A DNA stretch of 64,000 nt from Blastocatellia bacterium (GTDB taxonomy: Bacteria; Acidobacteriota; Blastocatellia; UBA7656), in the NCBI GenBank assembly GCA_963765495.1, contig CAVXWP010000008.1, positions 128,001 to 192,000 on the forward strand. The letters are read 5' to 3'. Position numbers and translations under genes: made by a program. Position 1 is the first letter of the stretch. Every line of letters starts with the position of its first letter. This document shows positions 1 to 36,400 of the stretch, piece after piece. Below the pieces are notes generated by a model that saw only the letters and a program-made list of their open reading frames with translations, had not been told where the DNA came from and ran no database searches.

Positions 1-113
1 TAATCCGCTGCATCCGCGTCATCCGCGGTCTATTTCAATTCGCCTTGTATTCAATTTAACCTGGCAAAACGCCTGATGCATGTTGTCCGCAATTCAAAAA
101 CTGAATGACCCTG
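1..113. mobile_element. Right part of a MITE copy (nonamer-periodic arm plus terminal repeat AAAACTGAATGACCCTG), truncated by the window edge
   Basis: Bases 1-37 match the right arm at 33350-33398 and 23750-23775. Bases 97-113 are the reverse complement of CAGGGTCATTCAGTTTT at 23649. Confidence 0.75.
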
Positions 114-22920: not shown

Positions 22921-23096
22921 GTAGATAAGTAAAAGGGGAATAGGCCGGGACGGACGCGGATCGGGCGGATTTTCACGGAGCTGATCCTATTGGATTTAAT
23001 CCGTGTAAATCCGCCAAAATCCGTGTCATCCGTGGCCTATTTCAACTCACCTTTGCTTCAAATCAACTTTTACCATTTCTTTCGCCTATTGCTCGC
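22921..23096. repeat. Degenerate copy of the nonamer-periodic palindrome / MITE body
   Basis: GAATAGGCC..CGGAT arms and the CTATTTCAACTCACCTTTGC..TCAACTTTT tail match 23680-23826; no intact terminal repeats. Confidence 0.8.
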
Positions 23097-23648: not shown

Positions 23649-23851
23649 CAGGGTCATTCAGTTTTCCAACATGTAGAAAGGGATAAGGGAAATAGGCCGC
23701 GGATGACGCGGATGCGACGGATTTTCGCGGATCTGATTTTATATGAGCTAATCCGCGTTATCCGCAGCCTATTTCAACTCGCCTTTGCGTCAACTCAACT
23801 TTTAATATTTTTTCCGCCTATTGCCCTCAACTCAAGAACTGAATGGCCCTG
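23649..23851. mobile_element. 203-bp MITE with CAGGG...CCCTG terminal inverted repeats and a 10-bp target-site duplication (ISAs1-like ends)
   Basis: Left end CAGGGTCATTCAGTT, right end AACTGAATGGCCCTG; ATTCCTGTTG at both 23639-23648 and 23852-23861; internal CGGAT nonamer palindrome at 23689-23775. Confidence 0.9.
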
Positions 23852-26659: not shown

Positions 26660-26746
26660 AAATCCGTCTCTATCCGTCCGACCCGCGTTTATCCGAGACC
26701 CGTTCCCGTTTCCCTTATCTACATTTTGCAAAACTGAATGACCCTG
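26660..26746. mobile_element. Partial inverted copy of the MITE (one terminal repeat plus one nonamer arm)
   Basis: The reverse complement CAGGGTCATTCAGTTTTGCAAAATGTAGATAAGGGAAAC... aligns with 23649-23730. Confidence 0.75.
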
Positions 26747-31453: not shown

Positions 31454-32830
31454 ATGAAGTTGTGGGGCGGCAGATTTAAGGGGGAAGCCGATGCGGGGTT
31501 CGCTCGTTTCAATGCTTCTTTTGGTTTTGACCGGCGTTTGATCGAAGCCGACATCACGGGGAGTCTGGCTCACGCCGAAGCATTGGCCGCGGCCGGTATC
31601 CTCACCCGAGATGAGGCAAGGCAGATCGAAGCGGGGCTGACGGAGATTTTGAGGCGAGCGCAACAGGAGCCGGATTATCTTGATAGCCGCGATGCGGAAG
31701 ACGTGCACAGCTTTGTCGAGGCCGAGCTTGTTCAGGCTATAGGAGACGCAGGCTATAAACTCCACACGGGCCGCAGCCGCAACGATCAGGTGGCGACCGA
31801 CCTCAGACTCTTTCTGCGGGCCGCGCTCGATGATCTGTCGCATCTCATTCGTGAATTTCAGACCGCGCTCGTAGAGCTTGCCGAAGCAAACCGCGACGCG
31901 GTGCTTCCCGGCTACACTCATCTTCAGCGCGCGCAGCCTGTCTTGTTCGCACATTATCTGCTTGCGTATTTCGAAATGGCGAAGCGCGACCGTGCGAGAC
32001 TTGGAGAGATAAGAGCGCGTGTGAACATCCTGCCGCTTGGAGCCGGGGCGCTCGCGGGCACAGGGTTCCCACTCGACCGCGAGATGGTAGCGCGTAGGTT
32101 AGGCTTTGACGCCGTTTCCGCTAACAGTCTGGACGCCGTGAGCGACCGCGATTTCGTGATCGAACTGGTTGCTGCCGCCGCGCTCGTTATGGTTCACATC
32201 AGCCGCATGGCCGAAGACCTGATAATCTATTCTTCCTCGGAGTTCGCCTTTATAGAGCTATCGGATGCTGTTTCAACCGGGTCTTCATTGATGCCTCAGA
32301 AGAAGAACCCTGATTCGCTGGAACTGATTCGCGGCAAGGCGGGTCGCATATTCGGTCACAACGCGGCTTTGCTCGCTACGATGAAGGGGTTGCCGCTGGC
32401 CTACAACAAGGACATGCAGGAAGACAAGGAAGCATTATTTGACACGCTCGATACTCTTCAAGGTTCGCTTGGCGTGATGACTACCGTGTTGCGAAATATC
32501 AGAGTGAATGAAGAGCGAATGCGCGCAGCCGCTTTGAGCGGGTACTCGAACGCAACCGATCTTGCGGATTATCTTGTCAGATGCGGGCTCGAATTTCGAA
32601 TCGCTCACGAAGTCGTCGGCCGGGTTGTAGGCTACGCTATTGGGGAAGGCAGGTCTTTGAGTGAATTGAGGTTGGAAGAGTACAGGCGGTTTTCTGAGTT
32701 GTTTGATGACACTTTGTTTGAGGCGATAAGGCTGGAATCGTCGCTTGCGAGCAAATCGGTGACTGGCGGTACGTCGCCTGAGAGGGTGAGCGAGGCGCTC
32801 GTCAGGGCAAGGAATGAGTTGAGCCGTTGA
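31454..32830 (+). CDS. argH: Argininosuccinate lyase
   Basis: KLWGGRF, HTGRSRNDQ, PGYTHLQRAQP and GSSLMPQKKNP motifs. Confidence 0.97.
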   Translation: MKLWGGRFKGEADAGFARFNASFGFDRRLIEADITGSLAHAEALAAAGILTRDEARQIEAGLTEILRRAQQEPDYLDSRDAEDVHSFVEAELVQAIGDAGYKLHTGRSRNDQVATDLRLFLRAALDDLSHLIREFQTALVELAEANRDAVLPGYTHLQRAQPVLFAHYLLAYFEMAKRDRARLGEIRARVNILPLGAGALAGTGFPLDREMVARRLGFDAVSANSLDAVSDRDFVIELVAAAALVMVHISRMAEDLIIYSSSEFAFIELSDAVSTGSSLMPQKKNPDSLELIRGKAGRIFGHNAALLATMKGLPLAYNKDMQEDKEALFDTLDTLQGSLGVMTTVLRNIRVNEERMRAAALSGYSNATDLADYLVRCGLEFRIAHEVVGRVVGYAIGEGRSLSELRLEEYRRFSELFDDTLFEAIRLESSLASKSVTGGTSPERVSEALVRARNELSR

Positions 32831-32842
32831 TCCTATTAAAGA

Positions 32843-33398
32843 AATTTGAAATAGGCCGCGGATGCCGCGGATGCGGCGGATTTTCGCGGATCTGATCATG
32901 TCTTCAAAGACATGGTCATGAGCAGCTCAAACTCTTCTTGGCATTTGTAAAAACTCTGCGCCGGAATTCAGGCATTGGCCCAAAGTTGAGCAATAGACCA
33001 ATCTCAATTTCTGTTGCTTTCAAATAATTCACCAACTGAGCTTCGTGGGCCTCGCAAATCACATCGGCTACTTTTAACTCCAAAATCACTATGTCTGCAA
33101 CCACTATATCAGCATAGTATTCGCCCACGAGTTGTCCTTGATAGTGAACCTTTATAGGCTGCTGCTGTCTGGCGGGTAGTCCTAATTTCCGCAATTCCAG
33201 TGTCAGAGCATTCTCATAGACCTTTTCGAGAAATCCATATCCCAAGGAGTTGTATGTTCTAAAGAAAGCCTTGATAATCCGGTCTGTCAGGTCTCTTTGC
33301 ACAAGCATAAATCCCTCCTGAACGTCTACAAGTGACGCAGAGACGACTAATCCGCGAAAATCCGCCGCATCCGCGTCATCCGCGGCCTATTTCAAATT
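32843..33398. mobile_element. GxxExxY gene cassette bounded by 49-bp nonamer-periodic inverted repeats
   Basis: 32843-32891 versus the reverse complement of 33350-33398: 48/49 identical. Confidence 0.8.
32916..33308 (-). CDS. GxxExxY protein (PD-(D/E)XK nuclease superfamily)
   Basis: GFLEKVY, YADIVV...ILELK, QLVNYL and GLLLNFG motifs; 130 aa; GGAGG RBS. Confidence 0.93.
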   Translation of the reverse strand: MLVQRDLTDRIIKAFFRTYNSLGYGFLEKVYENALTLELRKLGLPARQQQPIKVHYQGQLVGEYYADIVVADIVILELKVADVICEAHEAQLVNYLKATEIEIGLLLNFGPMPEFRRRVFTNAKKSLSCS

Positions 33399-33428
33399 GC
33401 ACACCTGGGATTTAAGGAAAAAATGAAG

Positions 33429-33472
33429 TAGACGGAACGGGCCATCCTACAAAGGCCGACCCGTTCCGTCTA
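33429..33472 (-). terminator. Probable intrinsic terminator of the BNR-repeat gene
   Basis: 13-bp stem TAGACGGAACGGG / CCCGTTCCGTCTA followed by a T-rich run on the minus strand. Confidence 0.65.
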
Positions 33473-33474
33473 TC

Positions 33475-36400
33475 TTAGCGAGGCACCTCAATGGGTTTGC
33501 CCGCGAGCAGTGTCGGGACATTATTCTGTCTGAGCTTTTCATTCCATCCGGCGACCGTCTTGCTCAAAAAGTTGTTCACATCCGCAAGCGTTTTCTGTAA
33601 CTCGGTTTGAAGCGATGTGAAGTACTCTTTCTGAGCCGGCGTAGGCGCGGCGTTCGTGCTGTCTATTGTGAAAAACAGCGAACCAATTTTATCGACCAGA
33701 CGCGGCCCGCTCCCCAGATCGTCGTCGTCACTTTCGCCCGCCCGCGCCAGACGGTCAATCATGTCATTCACCTGCTTTTTGTAATCTGCAAACGCCTTCT
33801 TCAAATCCTCCGGCGCATCGGGCATCTGATCCTTGACGGTCTTTTCCCGCTGGCCGAGTTGCTCGCTTATACTGTCGAGTGCGTGCAAGGCGTCGTTTCC
33901 AGCTGACTGCATGTCGCGCAGCTTCATCGCGTAATCGAATGTTGATTCGAGCGCGGTTGTCTCTACCTGTACCGTGGGATCGAGGCGAACCTCCACGCGT
34001 TTTTCTACGGACTTATCCCCGACCATCAATTTTACGGTGTAGGTTCCCGGCAAGGCGCGGGCTCCTCGTGGCCCGCCGAAAAAGCTGTCCTGCTCCTCAC
34101 CGCTCGGCGGGCGGCGCTGGTGCGCGCCTTCATAGCTCAGGTTCCACGACGCGCGGTTCATTCCTTTCTCTTTCGAAACCTTCTCAATTTCGCGTATCAC
34201 CTTGCCTTTTTGGTCGAGAATCTGAATCTTCACTTTAGTCTTATCGTCGGGCTTCTCCTTCAAATAGTAAGTGATCAGCGCGCCGTAGGCCGGGTTCGGC
34301 CCCGTAAAGACCGCATCGGCTATGCCGTATCTCGTGAATCTTGTCGTATATCGCAGGGCCGGGCGTATGTCGAACATATATAAATCGCTGTTCAACACAT
34401 CGGCGCTCGCCTGCTGGATGGGGGTGGCATCATCGAGTATCCAGACGCTCCGCCCGTGCGTGGCCAGTATCAAATCGTTCTCTCGCGGATGAATGTATAT
34501 GTCGTGAACCGCTACCGTAGGCAGGTTCTTCAGATTGAGCGAAACCCACTCTTTGCCACCCGTATAGGAAGCAAAAAGGCCAAGCTCCGTACCCGCATAA
34601 ATCAGATTGGTGTTCTTCGGGTCTTCGCGCACTACCCAGACATATGCGCCTTCGGGCAGATTGCCCGATATGTCGGTCCAGTTCTTTCCGCTGTCGGTTG
34701 TCTTGTAGATGTAGGGCTTGAAGTCATCAAGCATGTGGCGGTCGAATGAAACGTATGCCGTGTCGGCGCTTGTGCGTGAAGGCTCTACGTGCGAGATCAA
34801 AGGCGCTGTGCCCAATCCCTTTACGTTGCGCACAAGATTGTTCCACGTCTGTCCCGCGTCGGTGGTCAGTTGCAGGTTGCCGTCATCGGTGCCCGCCCAG
34901 ATCATCCCCTTTTTCACGGGAGATTCGGCTATGCTGATTATCGTGTTGTTATATTCGGCGGCTGTGTTTTCAATTGAGACAGGTCCGCCCGCGTTCTTCT
35001 GCTTTTCGGGATCATTAGTAGTCAGGTCCCCGCTTATCTTCTGCCACGTCCTGCCGAAATCCGTAGACTTGAACAAGACATTTCCGCCCAGATAGACCGT
35101 GTTCTTATCGTGCGACGAGATGTGTATGGGCGCGTTCCAGTTAAAGCGGTATTTCGCATTGCTTGCCGGGCCTCCCCCGTCTTCGGCTGCCGGGGTGATG
35201 GATTGCTGCTCGCGGTTCTGCATATCGGTTAACACGATGCTGCCGCCCTGCGCTTCGGAAATGTAGAGGTCGGGATTGTCGGGATGGTTGTACATATAAA
35301 ACCCGTCGCCGAAACTCACCATCCGCCAGTCATCGTTTAATATCCCGGCAGGCTCGCGTGTGCGGCTGGGTCCGGTCCAGCTACCGTTGTCTTGCAGACC
35401 GCCCATTACATAATAAAAAGGCTGCCGGTTGTCGGCGTAGATCTGGTAGAACTGCCCAAGCGGCATGTTGTTCACATATTGCCAGGTCTCGCCCTTATTG
35501 TGAGAGACGGCTACGCCACCGTCCTGCCCCTGCCACATGTAATTCGGGTCCTTCGGATCAATCCAGAAGGCGTGATAATCAACGTGCGTGCGCGTAGACA
35601 TGGGCTTGAAAGTGTGCCCTCCGTCAATCGACAGATAGAGGGTTGAGGCTACGCCGTAGACCCGGTTCTCGTCTGTAGGGTCAACTCTCACCCGCGTGTA
35701 ATAAAACCCGCGCTGAACAATGCGCTGATCTTTTGACACCTGTTTGAATGTCTCGCCTTTGTCATCGGAACGGTAAAGCGATCCTTCCTTTGATTCGACT
35801 ATGGCATAAACGACATTCGGATTGCTGGGCGCGGCACGCACTCCGATGCGGCCAAGCAGTTTTGGCAACCCTTCGGTGATCTTCTTCCACGTGCGCCCGC
35901 CGTCGATGGATTTGTAGAGGCCGCCTTTTTCGCCGCCGCTTTCAAACGTCCAGGGCTTGCGCAAAAAATGCCACATCCCGGCGTAAAGTATATTCGGATT
36001 TTCCGGGTCCATAGCCAGATCGCTCACGCCGTGTTCCGGGTCGATATAGAGCGTCTTTTGCCAGGACTTGCCTCCGTCAGTGGTCATAAAGACCCCGCGC
36101 TCCGGGTTTGGGCCAAAGGCGTGGCCGAGCGCGCCGACATAGACCGTGTTCGGGTCGCGAGGGCTGACGATGATGGCAGAAATGCGTTCGGTCTCTTTCA
36201 ATCCCATGTGTTGCCAGGACTTGCCTCCGTCGTTTGATCTGTAGACGCCGTCGCCGAAAGAGACGCTATTTCGAACGTTCGTTTCACCCGTGCCTGCCCA
36301 GATCACATCCGAGTTGTTCGGGTCTACGGCGAGATCGCCTATCGAAATCGTCCCCTGTCGCTCAAAGATTGGGGTCCAACTCATGCCGCCGTTTGTGGTC

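Follow-up and report, generated by a model that had tools for sequence, protein, structure and literature searches.

The window, by which we mean the whole 64,000-nucleotide stretch of DNA analysed here, contains a complete and intact cassette at 32843-33398 in which the gene of a GxxExxY protein is enclosed by two inverted arms, each built from short periodic CGGAT units. Across many phyla, genes of the GxxExxY family normally come as such a combination of gene and arms and, as judged by sequence comparison, divergence of the arm motif accompanies that of the protein. We consider it about an even bet (probability roughly 0.5) that the unit is an armed selfish cassette, with arms that are probably binding arrays for the protein encoded between them. 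The genome also contains more than a hundred gene-less palindromes of the same arm type, which can be explained without visible action of the nuclease.

Architecture of the cassette

The cassette, an insert of 556 bp, is intergenic and has argH on one side and, on the other, a hairpin that stands ahead of a convergent gene; the neighbouring genes are argH and this convergent gene, which encodes a 1061-aa exported protein (Table 1). The two arms, of 49 nt each and 458 nt apart, are complementary at 48 of 49 positions (98%), confirming the report in the initial annotation of near-identical arms with CGGAT units at a 9-10-nt period around a GxxExxY gene. The outer end of each arm reads AATAG(G/A)(C/A)C and is followed by four units of the ACRCGGAT type at intervals of 9-10 nt, those of the left arm beginning at 32859, 32868, 32877 and 32887 (spacing 9-9-10 nt). 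The left arm runs on into CTGAT at its inner end (the arm-model match covers 32844-32896), and on the plus strand the right arm has TAATCCG before its inner end. The 25-mer GAAATAGGCCGCGGATGCCGCGGAT, allowing up to three mismatches, occurs six times in the window versus 0 times in each of 100 shuffles. A single arm is a direct array, with a folding z of -1.9 and an equally good fold in 8 of 200 shuffles.

Table 1. Coordinates in the window of the cassette, its parts and the related features
Feature	Position	Strand	Remarks
Gene-less palindrome, right arm at window start	1..37	.	Genome C8:127931-128036; crosses window start
Gene-less palindrome, 107 bp, diverged arms	22937..23043	.	Hairpin -35.2 kcal/mol, z -7.4
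Gene-less palindrome, 87 bp	23689..23775	.	Strong hairpin, z -6.4; MITE core
Decayed solo arm, ATCCG units	26660..26706	.	No hairpin fold
Left arm	32843..32891	+	Gene's 3' side; outer end AATTTGAAATAGGCC, then four CGGAT units
3' untranslated spacer, stop codon to arm	32892..32915	-	Read from sequence
GxxExxY gene, 130 aa	32916..33308	-	Sole ORF between the arms
5' leader, arm to start codon	33309..33349	-	Read from sequence
Right arm	33350..33398	-	Gene's 5' side; reverse complement of the left arm with one mismatch
Context hairpin outside the element	33429..33472	.	20-nt stem, between cassette and stop codon of the convergent gene

The 5' leader of the gene carries a Shine-Dalgarno-like AGGAGGG at 33313-33319, and the 3' spacer contains a hairpin with a 7-bp stem, CATGTCT-TCAA-AGACATG, at 32897-32914. 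A consensus scan of 32700-33600 returned no sigma-70-like promoter, and no Rfam family was found in the window. Reading of the sequence on either side of the arms revealed no direct repeat or target duplication, in agreement with the initial annotation, and terminal inverted repeats of the MITE type are likewise absent from the gene-bearing cassette, which in both respects is unlike a MITE or other DDE transposon.

A minimal PD-(D/E)XK protein under purifying selection

The encoded protein matches the PF13366 profile with 134.7 bits (cut-off 22, E 2.5e-39) and the TIGR04256 GxxExxY profile with 130.1 bits (cut-off 35, E 4.7e-38), and a profile search identified it as the only PF13366 gene product of the 7.3-Mb genome. 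Residues G25, E28, Y31, E77, K79, Q91 and Y95 are invariant in 20 aligned sequences, and D67 is present in at least 90%. The predicted structure (pLDDT 91.7) is an alpha/beta nuclease core of PD-(D/E)XK fold, for which the nearest folds returned by Foldseek are Cas4 SSO0001, alkaline exonuclease and Hjc (TM 0.42-0.55, identity 12-19%). A sequence search of solved structures gave nothing below E 0.2, and the PADLOC and PHROGs model libraries each yielded 0 matching families. The likeness to Cas4/RecB nucleases and to Hjc lies in the fold and in the motif order E...D...ExK...QxxxY, which is common to both. Unlike Cas4, the protein is a 130-aa minimal core that has only two cysteines, C85 and C129 (neither conserved), and no four-cysteine Fe-S cluster, and the cassette does not lie in a CRISPR-cas neighbourhood.

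The PF13366/GxxExxY family is very large, with at least 7998 matches of E <1e-5 among 8000 scored candidates; its function is given as unknown in the available text of a superfamily survey (PMC3424549). In a viral collection only three relatives were found, and ACGGAT arms accompany one of the three. Purifying selection acts on the protein, dN/dS being 0.11-0.17 among the syntenic copies of three relatives (G003, G013 and G021). In these copies the arms are conserved and the sequence just beyond the arm end has diverged.

Periodic arms accompany GxxExxY genes in many phyla

Bracketing inverted repeats (score of at least 14) were present at 50 of the 72 testable GxxExxY loci, which came from many phyla, versus 1 of 107 control ORFs neighbouring the gene at the same loci, while explicit C[GAT]GA[TA] arrays on both sides were found at 27/72 and 0/107, respectively. 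A family-level sample gave a similar picture, 31 of 44 GxxExxY loci being armed. Clear arms were missing at 22 of the 72 cross-phylum and 13 of the 44 family-level loci, and at two loci (L008 of G030 and L132 of G029) the whole palindrome stands beside the GxxExxY gene, not around it. No sampled GxxExxY locus shows similarity to LSU rRNA or lies within a 23S gene.

The sequence of the arm unit follows the protein. Proteins of 54-66% identity, from Bacteroidota, Ignavibacteria, Chloroflexota, Desulfobacterota and others, come with the same ACRCGGAT unit and AATAGAAC outer end, and more distant GxxExxY proteins are accompanied by other units (CAGGATT, CACGAAG, CGCCAAGA and CGCGAAA). The sharing of arm 6-mers increases with protein identity (rho 0.33, a value reached by 0 of 2000 permutations); a test for arm/protein co-variation had been suggested at the outset. 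Comparison of the two arms of each of 33 cassettes showed that unit positions are better kept than spacers (0.92 vs 0.79), and spacers of the same cassette resemble each other more than those of different cassettes do (0.66 vs 0.41). The data support the view that gene and arms are linked by more than chance. It should be emphasized that the link between protein and arms appears in the sequences as co-occurrence and co-divergence, which common descent as a unit would also produce. None of the papers searched ties GxxExxY genes to flanking arrays; the supplements of PMC2700814 may show enclosed genes.

The layout extends to genes of a second fold family. Four-helix-bundle genes of PF05635 have the periodic-arm layout in 4 of 4 cases in this genome and in 25 of the 27 testable cases in relatives. 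These genes stand outside rRNA and, as they have the same layout with no nuclease motif, the arms may be a generic vehicle.

The cassette site in related genomes

Abundant CGGAT arrays go mainly with the presence of a close homologue of the protein, the median being 32 arrays in the eight relatives with a homologue at E<=1e-40 versus 1 in the other 32 relatives. The association has exceptions: one genome (G025) contains 20 CGGAT arrays while lacking a PF13366 gene, another (G029) has 462 with a homologue of just 53% identity, and arrays or other periodic hairpins occur in four relatives without any PF13366 gene. At the argH 3' site, where a comparison of empty and filled states had been suggested, both states were found across related genera, along with sites occupied by other periodic hairpins. 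In total the 3' end of argH hosts at least nine periodic-hairpin families in these genera, CGGAT and eight others, and in a relative that has no cassette there (G009) a hairpin like that at 33429-33472 stands directly 3' of argH. The cassette unit comes and goes at given chromosomal sites. Of the outcomes that, according to the initial annotation, would refute its proposal, the two examined here, a lack of arm enrichment around GxxExxY genes and a lack of presence/absence polymorphism, did not materialize.

Gene-less palindromes and the MITE that carries some of them

A genome-wide search with an arm model seeded from the cassette's own 17-mer returned 315 arms, arranged as 103 gene-less palindromes, 1 gene-bearing palindrome and 107 solo arms; the identity of arms to the consensus was rechecked with the seed excluded. 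Exact copies of the 17-mer account for 24 of its 220 genome matches, and arm identities are about 0.7. Almost all of the palindromes (94/104) are intergenic. A preference for gene 3' ends was considered and rejected, as tandem, divergent and convergent spacers hold 55, 22 and 17 copies, roughly matching their shares of spacer length (60/25/15%). In the gene-less copies an 11-20-nt loop occupies the place of the gene, with the same CTGA and TAATC junctions. The inner asymmetry, CTGAT on one side and TAATCCG on the other, is present at all four sister sites in the window, as initially described, and among the 103 gene-less copies it is full in 54, partial in 41 and absent in 8.

The arms of one gene-less element are no more alike than those of different elements (0.71 vs 0.73). 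Among the 104 palindromes the gene-bearing copy ranks first in arm matching, by a narrow lead (0.91 versus 0.89 for the next). Its candidacy as a 'master copy' is weakened by the comparison that leaves out the search seed, in which the right arm ties for first place (13 ties among 208 arms) and the left arm falls at the median. Among the sequencing runs listed, no RNA run and a single DNA run, a metagenome, contain the stretch. Excision of the cassette was also considered, on the strength of a contig from this DNA metagenome run that joins 32895 to 33348 via 12 other letters (side 26, 90% likeness); the contig is read as another gene-less palindrome that matches both arms, in preference to excision.

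Much of the gene-less population is embedded in larger repeats. A MITE of 217-222 bp, which has CAGGGYCATTCAGTT as its terminal inverted repeats and target-site duplications of 9 bp, contains at least 20 of the 104 palindromes as its core; such terminal repeats together with 9-bp duplications point to a DDE transposase. When the five most similar palindrome pairs were examined, four proved to be repeats of 212-222 bp, and 79 of the 104 palindromes have at least one outer flank module in common with other copies. The four gene-less sister sites listed in the initial annotation all exist, but those at 1-37 and 23689-23775 are not bare arms, because they are cores of the larger MITE. The right end of the first MITE lies near 111-113 of the window, and the second extends over ~23649-23851, its terminal inverted repeats being CAGGGTCATTCAGTT and its 9-bp duplication ATTCCTGTT. 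A further MITE end (AAACTGAATGACCCTG) is found at ~26729-26745, after the decayed solo arm. The youngest gene-less copies moved within this 217-222-bp MITE, and the genome shows that an ordinary MITE can inflate the number of shells. With respect to an autonomous partner of the MITE, a search for terminal-repeat pairs 0.4-6 kb apart gave two matches, both around ordinary genes, and within 1.5 kb of any contig end there was no strong terminal-repeat match, the closest being two with three mismatches (C3 and C14).

A true Y1 RAYT coexists in the genome with its own REP, a 22-mer that is exact in 22 of 33 matches. Y1 transposases were rejected as drivers of the CGGAT arms, both PF01797 genes being located on other contigs and devoid of CGGAT arms.

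Discussion

In the reading that we favour, the selfish cassette would consist of the gene for a small RecB/Cas4-like PD-(D/E)XK nuclease, its own ribosome-binding site and the two inverted arms. The four-plus-four units would be the recognition array of the protein, with about one protomer seated on each unit along a single face of the helix, and the nuclease would bind at or between arrays matching its type, where it would probably also cut. Rejoining DNA is beyond a hydrolytic nuclease alone, so that host repair would be needed for the cassette to be copied or retained, a possible route being homing-like copying into related arrays, in which the arms provide the homology. The gene-less palindromes would be shells that have lost the ~440-bp interior and have multiplied here largely as passengers in the MITE and other composite repeats. 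Free-standing homing endonuclease genes offer a parallel in that a given site either has or lacks a small nuclease gene and, under the homing model, in that the flanks could serve as homology. Unlike the flanks of these genes, those of the cassette are periodic inverted arrays found across phyla, not a split host-gene target.

Other explanations of the layout have to be weighed against this reading. Intervening sequences of 23S rRNA that contain an S23p (PF05635) ORF occur in Coxiella and Leptospira. In the available text of PMC4990558 such an element, of 428 nt and with an S23p ORF, is described as selfish, and the cassette shares with it the form of a 430-560-bp insert in which one small ORF is closed by pairable inverted repeats. 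It could be argued that the arms likewise serve to pair the ends of a transcript from which host RNase III trims the cassette, rendering the insertion harmless, with the protein having a separate role and movement being due to something else. This is consistent with the armed genes of the S23p family outside rRNA, with the location of cassettes and hairpins at or over stop codons within transcription units, with the strong hairpins formed by gene-less copies and with the greater similarity of spacers within cassettes. A stem, however, could do without periodic units, and still both the periodicity and a unit sequence specific to each clade are kept across phyla, and unit positions are conserved beyond the needs of pairing. 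The cassette differs from the rRNA elements in having units 9-10 nt apart, not 7, in an ORF of another fold family and in its location outside rRNA, which holds for every GxxExxY locus sampled. We regard insulation of the RNA as an unlikely primary function of the arms. The initial annotation proposed a different precedent, an analogue of the REPIN/RAYT system in which the single-copy nuclease excises, copies or maintains the palindromes and the gene-less ones are its non-autonomous dependants. Indeed, a single-copy gene lies between inverted copies of a dispersed repeat, about 100 gene-less doublets are mostly intergenic, the gene-bearing copy has the best-matched arms and no target duplication, and arrays are frequent mainly alongside a close homologue. 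The enzyme, however, belongs to PF13366 and not to the HUH/Y1 transposases (PF01797); PD-(D/E)XK chemistry is hydrolytic, and strand transfer is not expected of it. Each arm comprises four directly arrayed units, in contrast to the short imperfect palindrome of a REP, and the CGGAT population is diverged and partly spread by the MITE, lacking the uniform master-sequence character that the genome's real REP displays far more strongly. The shared flank modules, the MITE-sized repeats among the most similar pairs, the absence of any greater likeness between arms of the same gene-less element and the persistence of arrays in G025 without the gene also argue against it. The part of the initial proposal that posited gene-less derivatives stands, while RAYT-like spreading by the nuclease finds no support in view of the hitch-hiking in MITEs, the PF13366-free arrays and the armed four-helix-bundle genes, and is in our judgement improbable.

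The palindromes may instead have come first, as an independent repeat family into the centre of which a homing-type nuclease gene was inserted, the arms being the two halves of its split target. PD-(D/E)XK homing endonucleases exist, the gene occupies the exact place of the loop with identical junctions, and a single palindrome of the 104 is filled. This history is nevertheless quite improbable, in that most genomes, even those poor in arrays, have the gene in armed form, clade-specific arm units follow the protein across phyla, and a chance target would not be periodic in every clade. Finally, the arrays could be host sites that bind a global regulator such as IHF/HU, the position of the gene being incidental. 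Paired tandem octa- and heptanucleotide arrays in Geobacter metallireducens are annotated in this way (PMC2700814), and they resemble the present arms in having 3-5 tandem short units, in occurring as opposite-strand pairs at variable distance and in numbering dozens of copies; unlike the arms described here, they are given no link to an enclosed gene in the available text of that paper. The unit sequence, however, varies between cassettes of one genome and follows the enclosed gene, the sites are distributed over intergenic types in proportion to length, and orthologous sites may either have or lack the element; a role as host regulatory sites is very improbable indeed.

The selfish-cassette reading can be extended, tentatively and with more doubt than confidence, to a large undescribed superclass of such elements, in which GxxExxY proteins and the unrelated four-helix-bundle 'IVS proteins' would each read their own arm unit, one protomer per unit. 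The 23S intervening sequences and many of the hairpins built of heptamer-to-decamer repeats in bacterial genomes would then be special cases or empty shells. If the superclass is real, GxxExxY proteins would be small nucleases in which specificity has been reset many times (to CGGAT, CAGGATT, CACGAAG, CGCCAAGA and others). The layout itself hands the family a concrete candidate partner, the repeated unit beside each gene. Should the protein read its own arms, periodic hairpin repeats that have been recorded as putative regulator sites would be explained, a link would exist between dispersed hairpin repeats and the intervening sequences of rRNA, and small nucleases that differ naturally in sequence preference would become available as a set. 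The genome analysed here is useful in this respect, as a single intact gene coexists in it with about 100 shells and with a true RAYT/REP system.

Gene-and-arm units recur across phyla

The GxxExxY (PF13366) gene of the window and the inverted arms that enclose it (together, the cassette) form a discrete unit that recurs non-randomly across phyla. With sampling restricted to a single genome for each species, 80 loci spread over many phyla were recovered whose proteins share 54-66% identity with the query. For the 72 with testable flanks, the upstream 300 nt were aligned with the downstream 300 nt in reverse complement, with 107 other ORFs of the tested loci, at least 700 nt away, as controls. 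An inverted-repeat score of at least 14 was reached by 50/72 GxxExxY genes against 1/107 control ORFs, and a score of at least 18 by 35 against one, while C[GAT]GA[TA] arrays lay on both sides of 27/72 genes and of 0/107 controls. The sharing of arm 6-mers increases with protein identity (rho 0.33, reached by 0 of 2,000 permutations), which shows that arms and gene travel and diverge as one unit, a co-divergence that by itself would fit recognition as well as common descent. The initial annotation had proposed to test whether GxxExxY genes at large are flanked by periodic inverted repeats and whether arm and protein co-vary. In a family-level sample 31 of 44 loci were armed.

Arms from Bacteroidota, Ignavibacteria, Chloroflexota, Geobacter and others consist of AATAGAAC followed by ACRCGGAT units, the motif of the window cassette, and more distant proteins are accompanied by ACACAGAT, CGCAGAT, CAGGATT, CACGAAG, CGCCAAGA or CGCGAAA. 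Between the two arms of the same cassette agreement is 0.92 at unit positions and 0.79 at other positions (33 cassettes), and spacers agree at 0.66 within versus 0.41 between cassettes, all values that local alignments inflate. No paper tying GxxExxY genes to flanking arrays was found in the literature searched; the available portion of one study discusses heptamer direct repeats of Beggiatoaceae without a tie to the arm-bracketed genes treated here (PMC4679880). The only high-scoring control ORF (L119:1257-2042, score 22.5) lies between AAGGCGC-type arrays and may itself be an armed gene of a different kind.

The cassette and its gene-less derivatives

Each arm of the window cassette reads as AATTTGAAATAGGCC followed by four CGGAT units spaced 9, 9 and 10 nt apart, and an arm 25-mer (up to three mismatches) occurs six times in the window versus never in 100 shuffles. 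In profile searches the enclosed ORF matches PF13366 (E 2.5e-39) and TIGR04256 GxxExxY (E 4.7e-38), and AGGAGGG lies 7 bases upstream of its ATG. Near-identical arms (48/49), three gene-less copies, one single arm and the lack of a target-site duplication had all been described from the sequence by eye, and each was recovered here; direct repeats outside the arms are absent at the cassette borders.

Coordinates of the cassette and related features (window positions unless a contig or locus is named; G000, the genome holding the window; C, its contigs; L, loci of other genomes)
Feature	Position	Details
Window	G000:C8:128001-192000	assembly of 7.3 Mb, 17 contigs
Left arm	32843-32891	49 nt, 98% complementary to right arm (inverted-repeat search)
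Right arm	33350-33398	49 nt, separated from left arm by 458 nt (inverted-repeat search)
GxxExxY ORF	32916-33308	minus strand; 130 aa; sole sizeable ORF between arms
Sister site	1-37	confirmed
Sister palindrome	22937-23043	complete; strong predicted hairpin (folding z -7.4)
Sister palindrome	23689-23775	complete; strong predicted hairpin (folding z -6.4)
Sister site	26660-26706	lone arm, decayed
MITE copy	about 23649-23851	core is palindrome 23689-23775
MITE copy	window start to about 113	core is the palindrome whose right arm is 1-37
GGCAGTA shells	G000:C1:955295-955470, C2:241745-241925, C1:585935-586100	plus about 16 others
PF05635 genes	G000:C1:724990-725430 (in L154), C1:1070893-1071326, C7:193580-194040, C1:951860-952300	
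RAYT-like Y1 transposase gene	G000:C17:143999-144617	flanked by inverted REPs (GGGGCAGGGCTTGTCCCTGCCC)
argH 3'-end hairpins, nine relatives	L023, L026, L027, L028, L035, L037, L041, L043, L046	TAGGATY (G014), GTGCTGA (G006 and G023), CAGGATT (G040), GCAGGGGT (G001), GGCGAAKGG (G004), ACACAGAT (G017), CACAGAG (G019), CACGAAG, one arm (G024)

G000 holds exactly one PF13366 gene. An arm profile search recovered 315 arms, of which 107 stand alone and the rest form 104 convergent pairs, and the pairs resolve into 103 gene-less palindromes (70-120 bp) and the one gene-bearing copy (554 bp). By crude ORF calling 94/104 pairs are intergenic; 55 lie in tandem, 22 in divergent and 17 in convergent spacers, roughly what the lengths of these spacers would lead one to expect. 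The palindrome population is old, median arm identity in gene-less elements being 0.71 within an element versus 0.73 between elements. Among the 104 pairs, arm matching is highest in the gene-bearing copy (0.91 versus a median of 0.74; next best 0.86-0.89). The nearness of its arms to the consensus is partly circular, as the profile was seeded from the cassette's own 17-mer; with the seed excluded, the right arm shares first rank among 208 arms and the left arm falls on the median.

Some palindromes at separate G000 loci are 95-98% identical, and of five such pairs inspected, four share this identity over exactly 212-222 bp. These repeats represent a MITE of 217-222 bp that ends in terminal inverted repeats (CAGGGYCATTCAGTT) and is flanked by clear 9-bp target duplications; short forms measure about 142 bp, and the core is the CGGAT palindrome or its 31-nt collapsed version. 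Both terminal repeats are found near 20/104 palindromes (full copies) and one near 15/104. At least one outer flank module common to other copies is shared by 79/104, and only 25/104, the gene-bearing copy included, have unique flanks on both sides. Gene-less derivatives have thus hitch-hiked in a MITE, for which the G000 assembly yielded no autonomous or transposase partner.

Gain and loss at the argH site

The cassette has been both gained and lost at fixed sites. The comparison covered 40 relatives (G001-G040), all from outside the genus of G000, 29 of which carry 1-7 GxxExxY homologues each. CGGAT arrays (three units, 3-5-nt spacers) number 367 in G000 versus 0 for the reversed control pattern, with a median of 32 in the eight relatives with a best homologue at E<=1e-40 versus 1 in the other 32; array number follows homologue closeness (rho 0.59), the relatives not being independent, so that p-values overstate the association. 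Exceptions are G029, with 462 arrays, a homologue only 53% identical and a whole palindrome at the gene 3' end, and G025, with 20 arrays and without a PF13366 gene. At a G029 contig end (L132:1960-2014) an adapter-like stretch precedes a duplicated arm fragment, probably an assembly artefact.

Filled and empty states of the argH 3' site, a comparison proposed at the outset, were both seen among 30 argH loci. In G000 the cassette follows argH directly, beginning 12 nt past the stop codon, with its gene antisense to argH. In G003, G013 and G021 it is also downstream; here the gene reads in the direction of argH and an additional arm stands in tandem, and by eye the argH frame enters the arm and stops in the first unit. 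Since these junctions differ, the G000 cassette and the other three look like separate insertions. The arms of G003, G013 and G021 align well, and the likeness stops at the arm's outer CTAT. G002 and G020 carry the cassette about 700 bp upstream of argH, and it is absent from the remaining 24/30 loci. In G009 the convergent gene downstream appears, by eye, to be the same one, and argH is followed by nothing but a long hairpin, the empty state. Empty sites in many genera are not bare: in nine relatives, gene-less hairpins of eight other units adjoin or cover the argH stop codon, and in some themselves supply it.

Four-helix-bundle genes with the same design

A screen of G000 for gene-sized inverted repeats returned a four-helix-bundle gene with TTTTGAG arrays on both sides. 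In G000 all four members of PF05635 (the '23S rRNA IVS protein' family) are bracketed by inverted arrays of 7-nt units (GGGGCCA, TTTTGAG, GGGATGA and TTTTGGA/TTTAGAT), as are 25 of 27 testable PF05635 genes of relatives, every one having a unit of its own, and gene-less hairpins of such heptamers are common in G000. The armed layout is not confined to nuclease genes, and thus the enclosed protein may be a reader of the arrays rather than an enzyme moving the DNA.

About 19 hairpin shells of (GGCAGTA)n / (TACTGCC)n in G000, a nested or chimeric repeat, contain a single CGGAT arm and a stretch like the cassette 3' spacer (CTGATCATGGCTTCA). G000 has no GGCAGTA-armed gene; G009 and G020 carry four-helix-bundle genes with this unit.

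The GxxExxY protein

G23, G25, E28, Y31, E77, K79, Q91, Y95, N108 and F109 are invariant in a 20-member family alignment, and D67 is conserved in at least 90% of members; the order E...D...ExK...QxxxY is that of RecB/Cas4-type PD-(D/E)XK nucleases. The AlphaFold model has high confidence (pLDDT 91.7), with Cas4 SSO0001, an alkaline exonuclease and Hjc resolvase as nearest solved folds (TM 0.42-0.55, 11-19% identity); a sequence search of solved structures and the PADLOC and PHROGs libraries gave zero matches. The syntenic copies in G003, G013 and G021 have dN/dS of 0.11-0.17 at dS 0.3-0.7, showing that the protein is under purifying selection. The family is very large (at least 8,000 candidate homologues), and among the matches listed proteins 63-74% identical are named from Blastocatellia, Acidobacteriota, Bacteroidota, Flavobacteriales and Gemmataceae, names that point to a soil Blastocatellia as the most likely host. 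In the accessible part of a superfamily survey PF13366 is listed as 'Unknown' (PMC3424549), and 'GxxExxY' appears elsewhere, in text available in part, as an appended domain beside a reverse transcriptase.

In several relatives (L002:1880-1932; L010, minus strand, gene 3' end) the GxxExxY frame continues into the arm and translates the units as a short periodic tail such as ...YPPHPPHP or ...NPPNPPNP. A search of a viral contig collection found only three relatives; one (L186:1413-1883) is bracketed by ACGGAT-type arms, and the cassette can therefore reside in a predicted viral contig.

Possible roles of the arrays

We favour, at a probability of about 0.5, the reading that the arm units are a binding array for an oligomer of the encoded protein, with the nuclease cutting there and host repair copying the unit. 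The four units per arm, about one helical turn apart, would be the putative binding sites, and cleavage would fall at or between arrays. Because PD-(D/E)XK enzymes hydrolyse without strand transfer, copying would have to use host repair, in which related arrays could act as homology.

It could be argued instead that the arms act at the RNA level, like an IVS. The Coxiella IVS is described, in the portion of the source available, as a selfish element of 428 nt that carries an S23p ORF (PMC4990558), and the armed PF05635 genes belong to a family named after such elements; the GxxExxY cassette has the same layout around a predicted nuclease, and we consider this reading unlikely. That a homing gene entered a palindrome already in place, which has to be weighed against the joint divergence of arms and gene, seems quite improbable. 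That the arrays are sites of a host regulator is hardly credible; excerpts of a G. metallireducens study list tandem arrays of octa- and heptanucleotides, paired and lying on opposite strands, as putative sites of IHF/HU (PMC2700814).

The initial annotation had read the cassette as the full element of a REPIN/RAYT-like system with non-autonomous derivatives. One gene-bearing and 103 gene-less copies uphold the element and its derivatives; a strict RAYT-like role is unlikely, as shells hitch-hike in a MITE and non-nuclease genes are armed in the same way. The REP of G000's own RAYT-like Y1 gene, which has 33 matches, including inverted doublets spaced by about 68 nt, is also far more uniform (22/33 exact 22-mers) than the CGGAT arm (exact 17-mers in 24/220 seed matches). 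A separate IS200/IS605-type Y1 transposase gene (G000:C9:13560-14100), with flanking CCCCGCAGC hairpins, is apparently inserted within another transposase gene.
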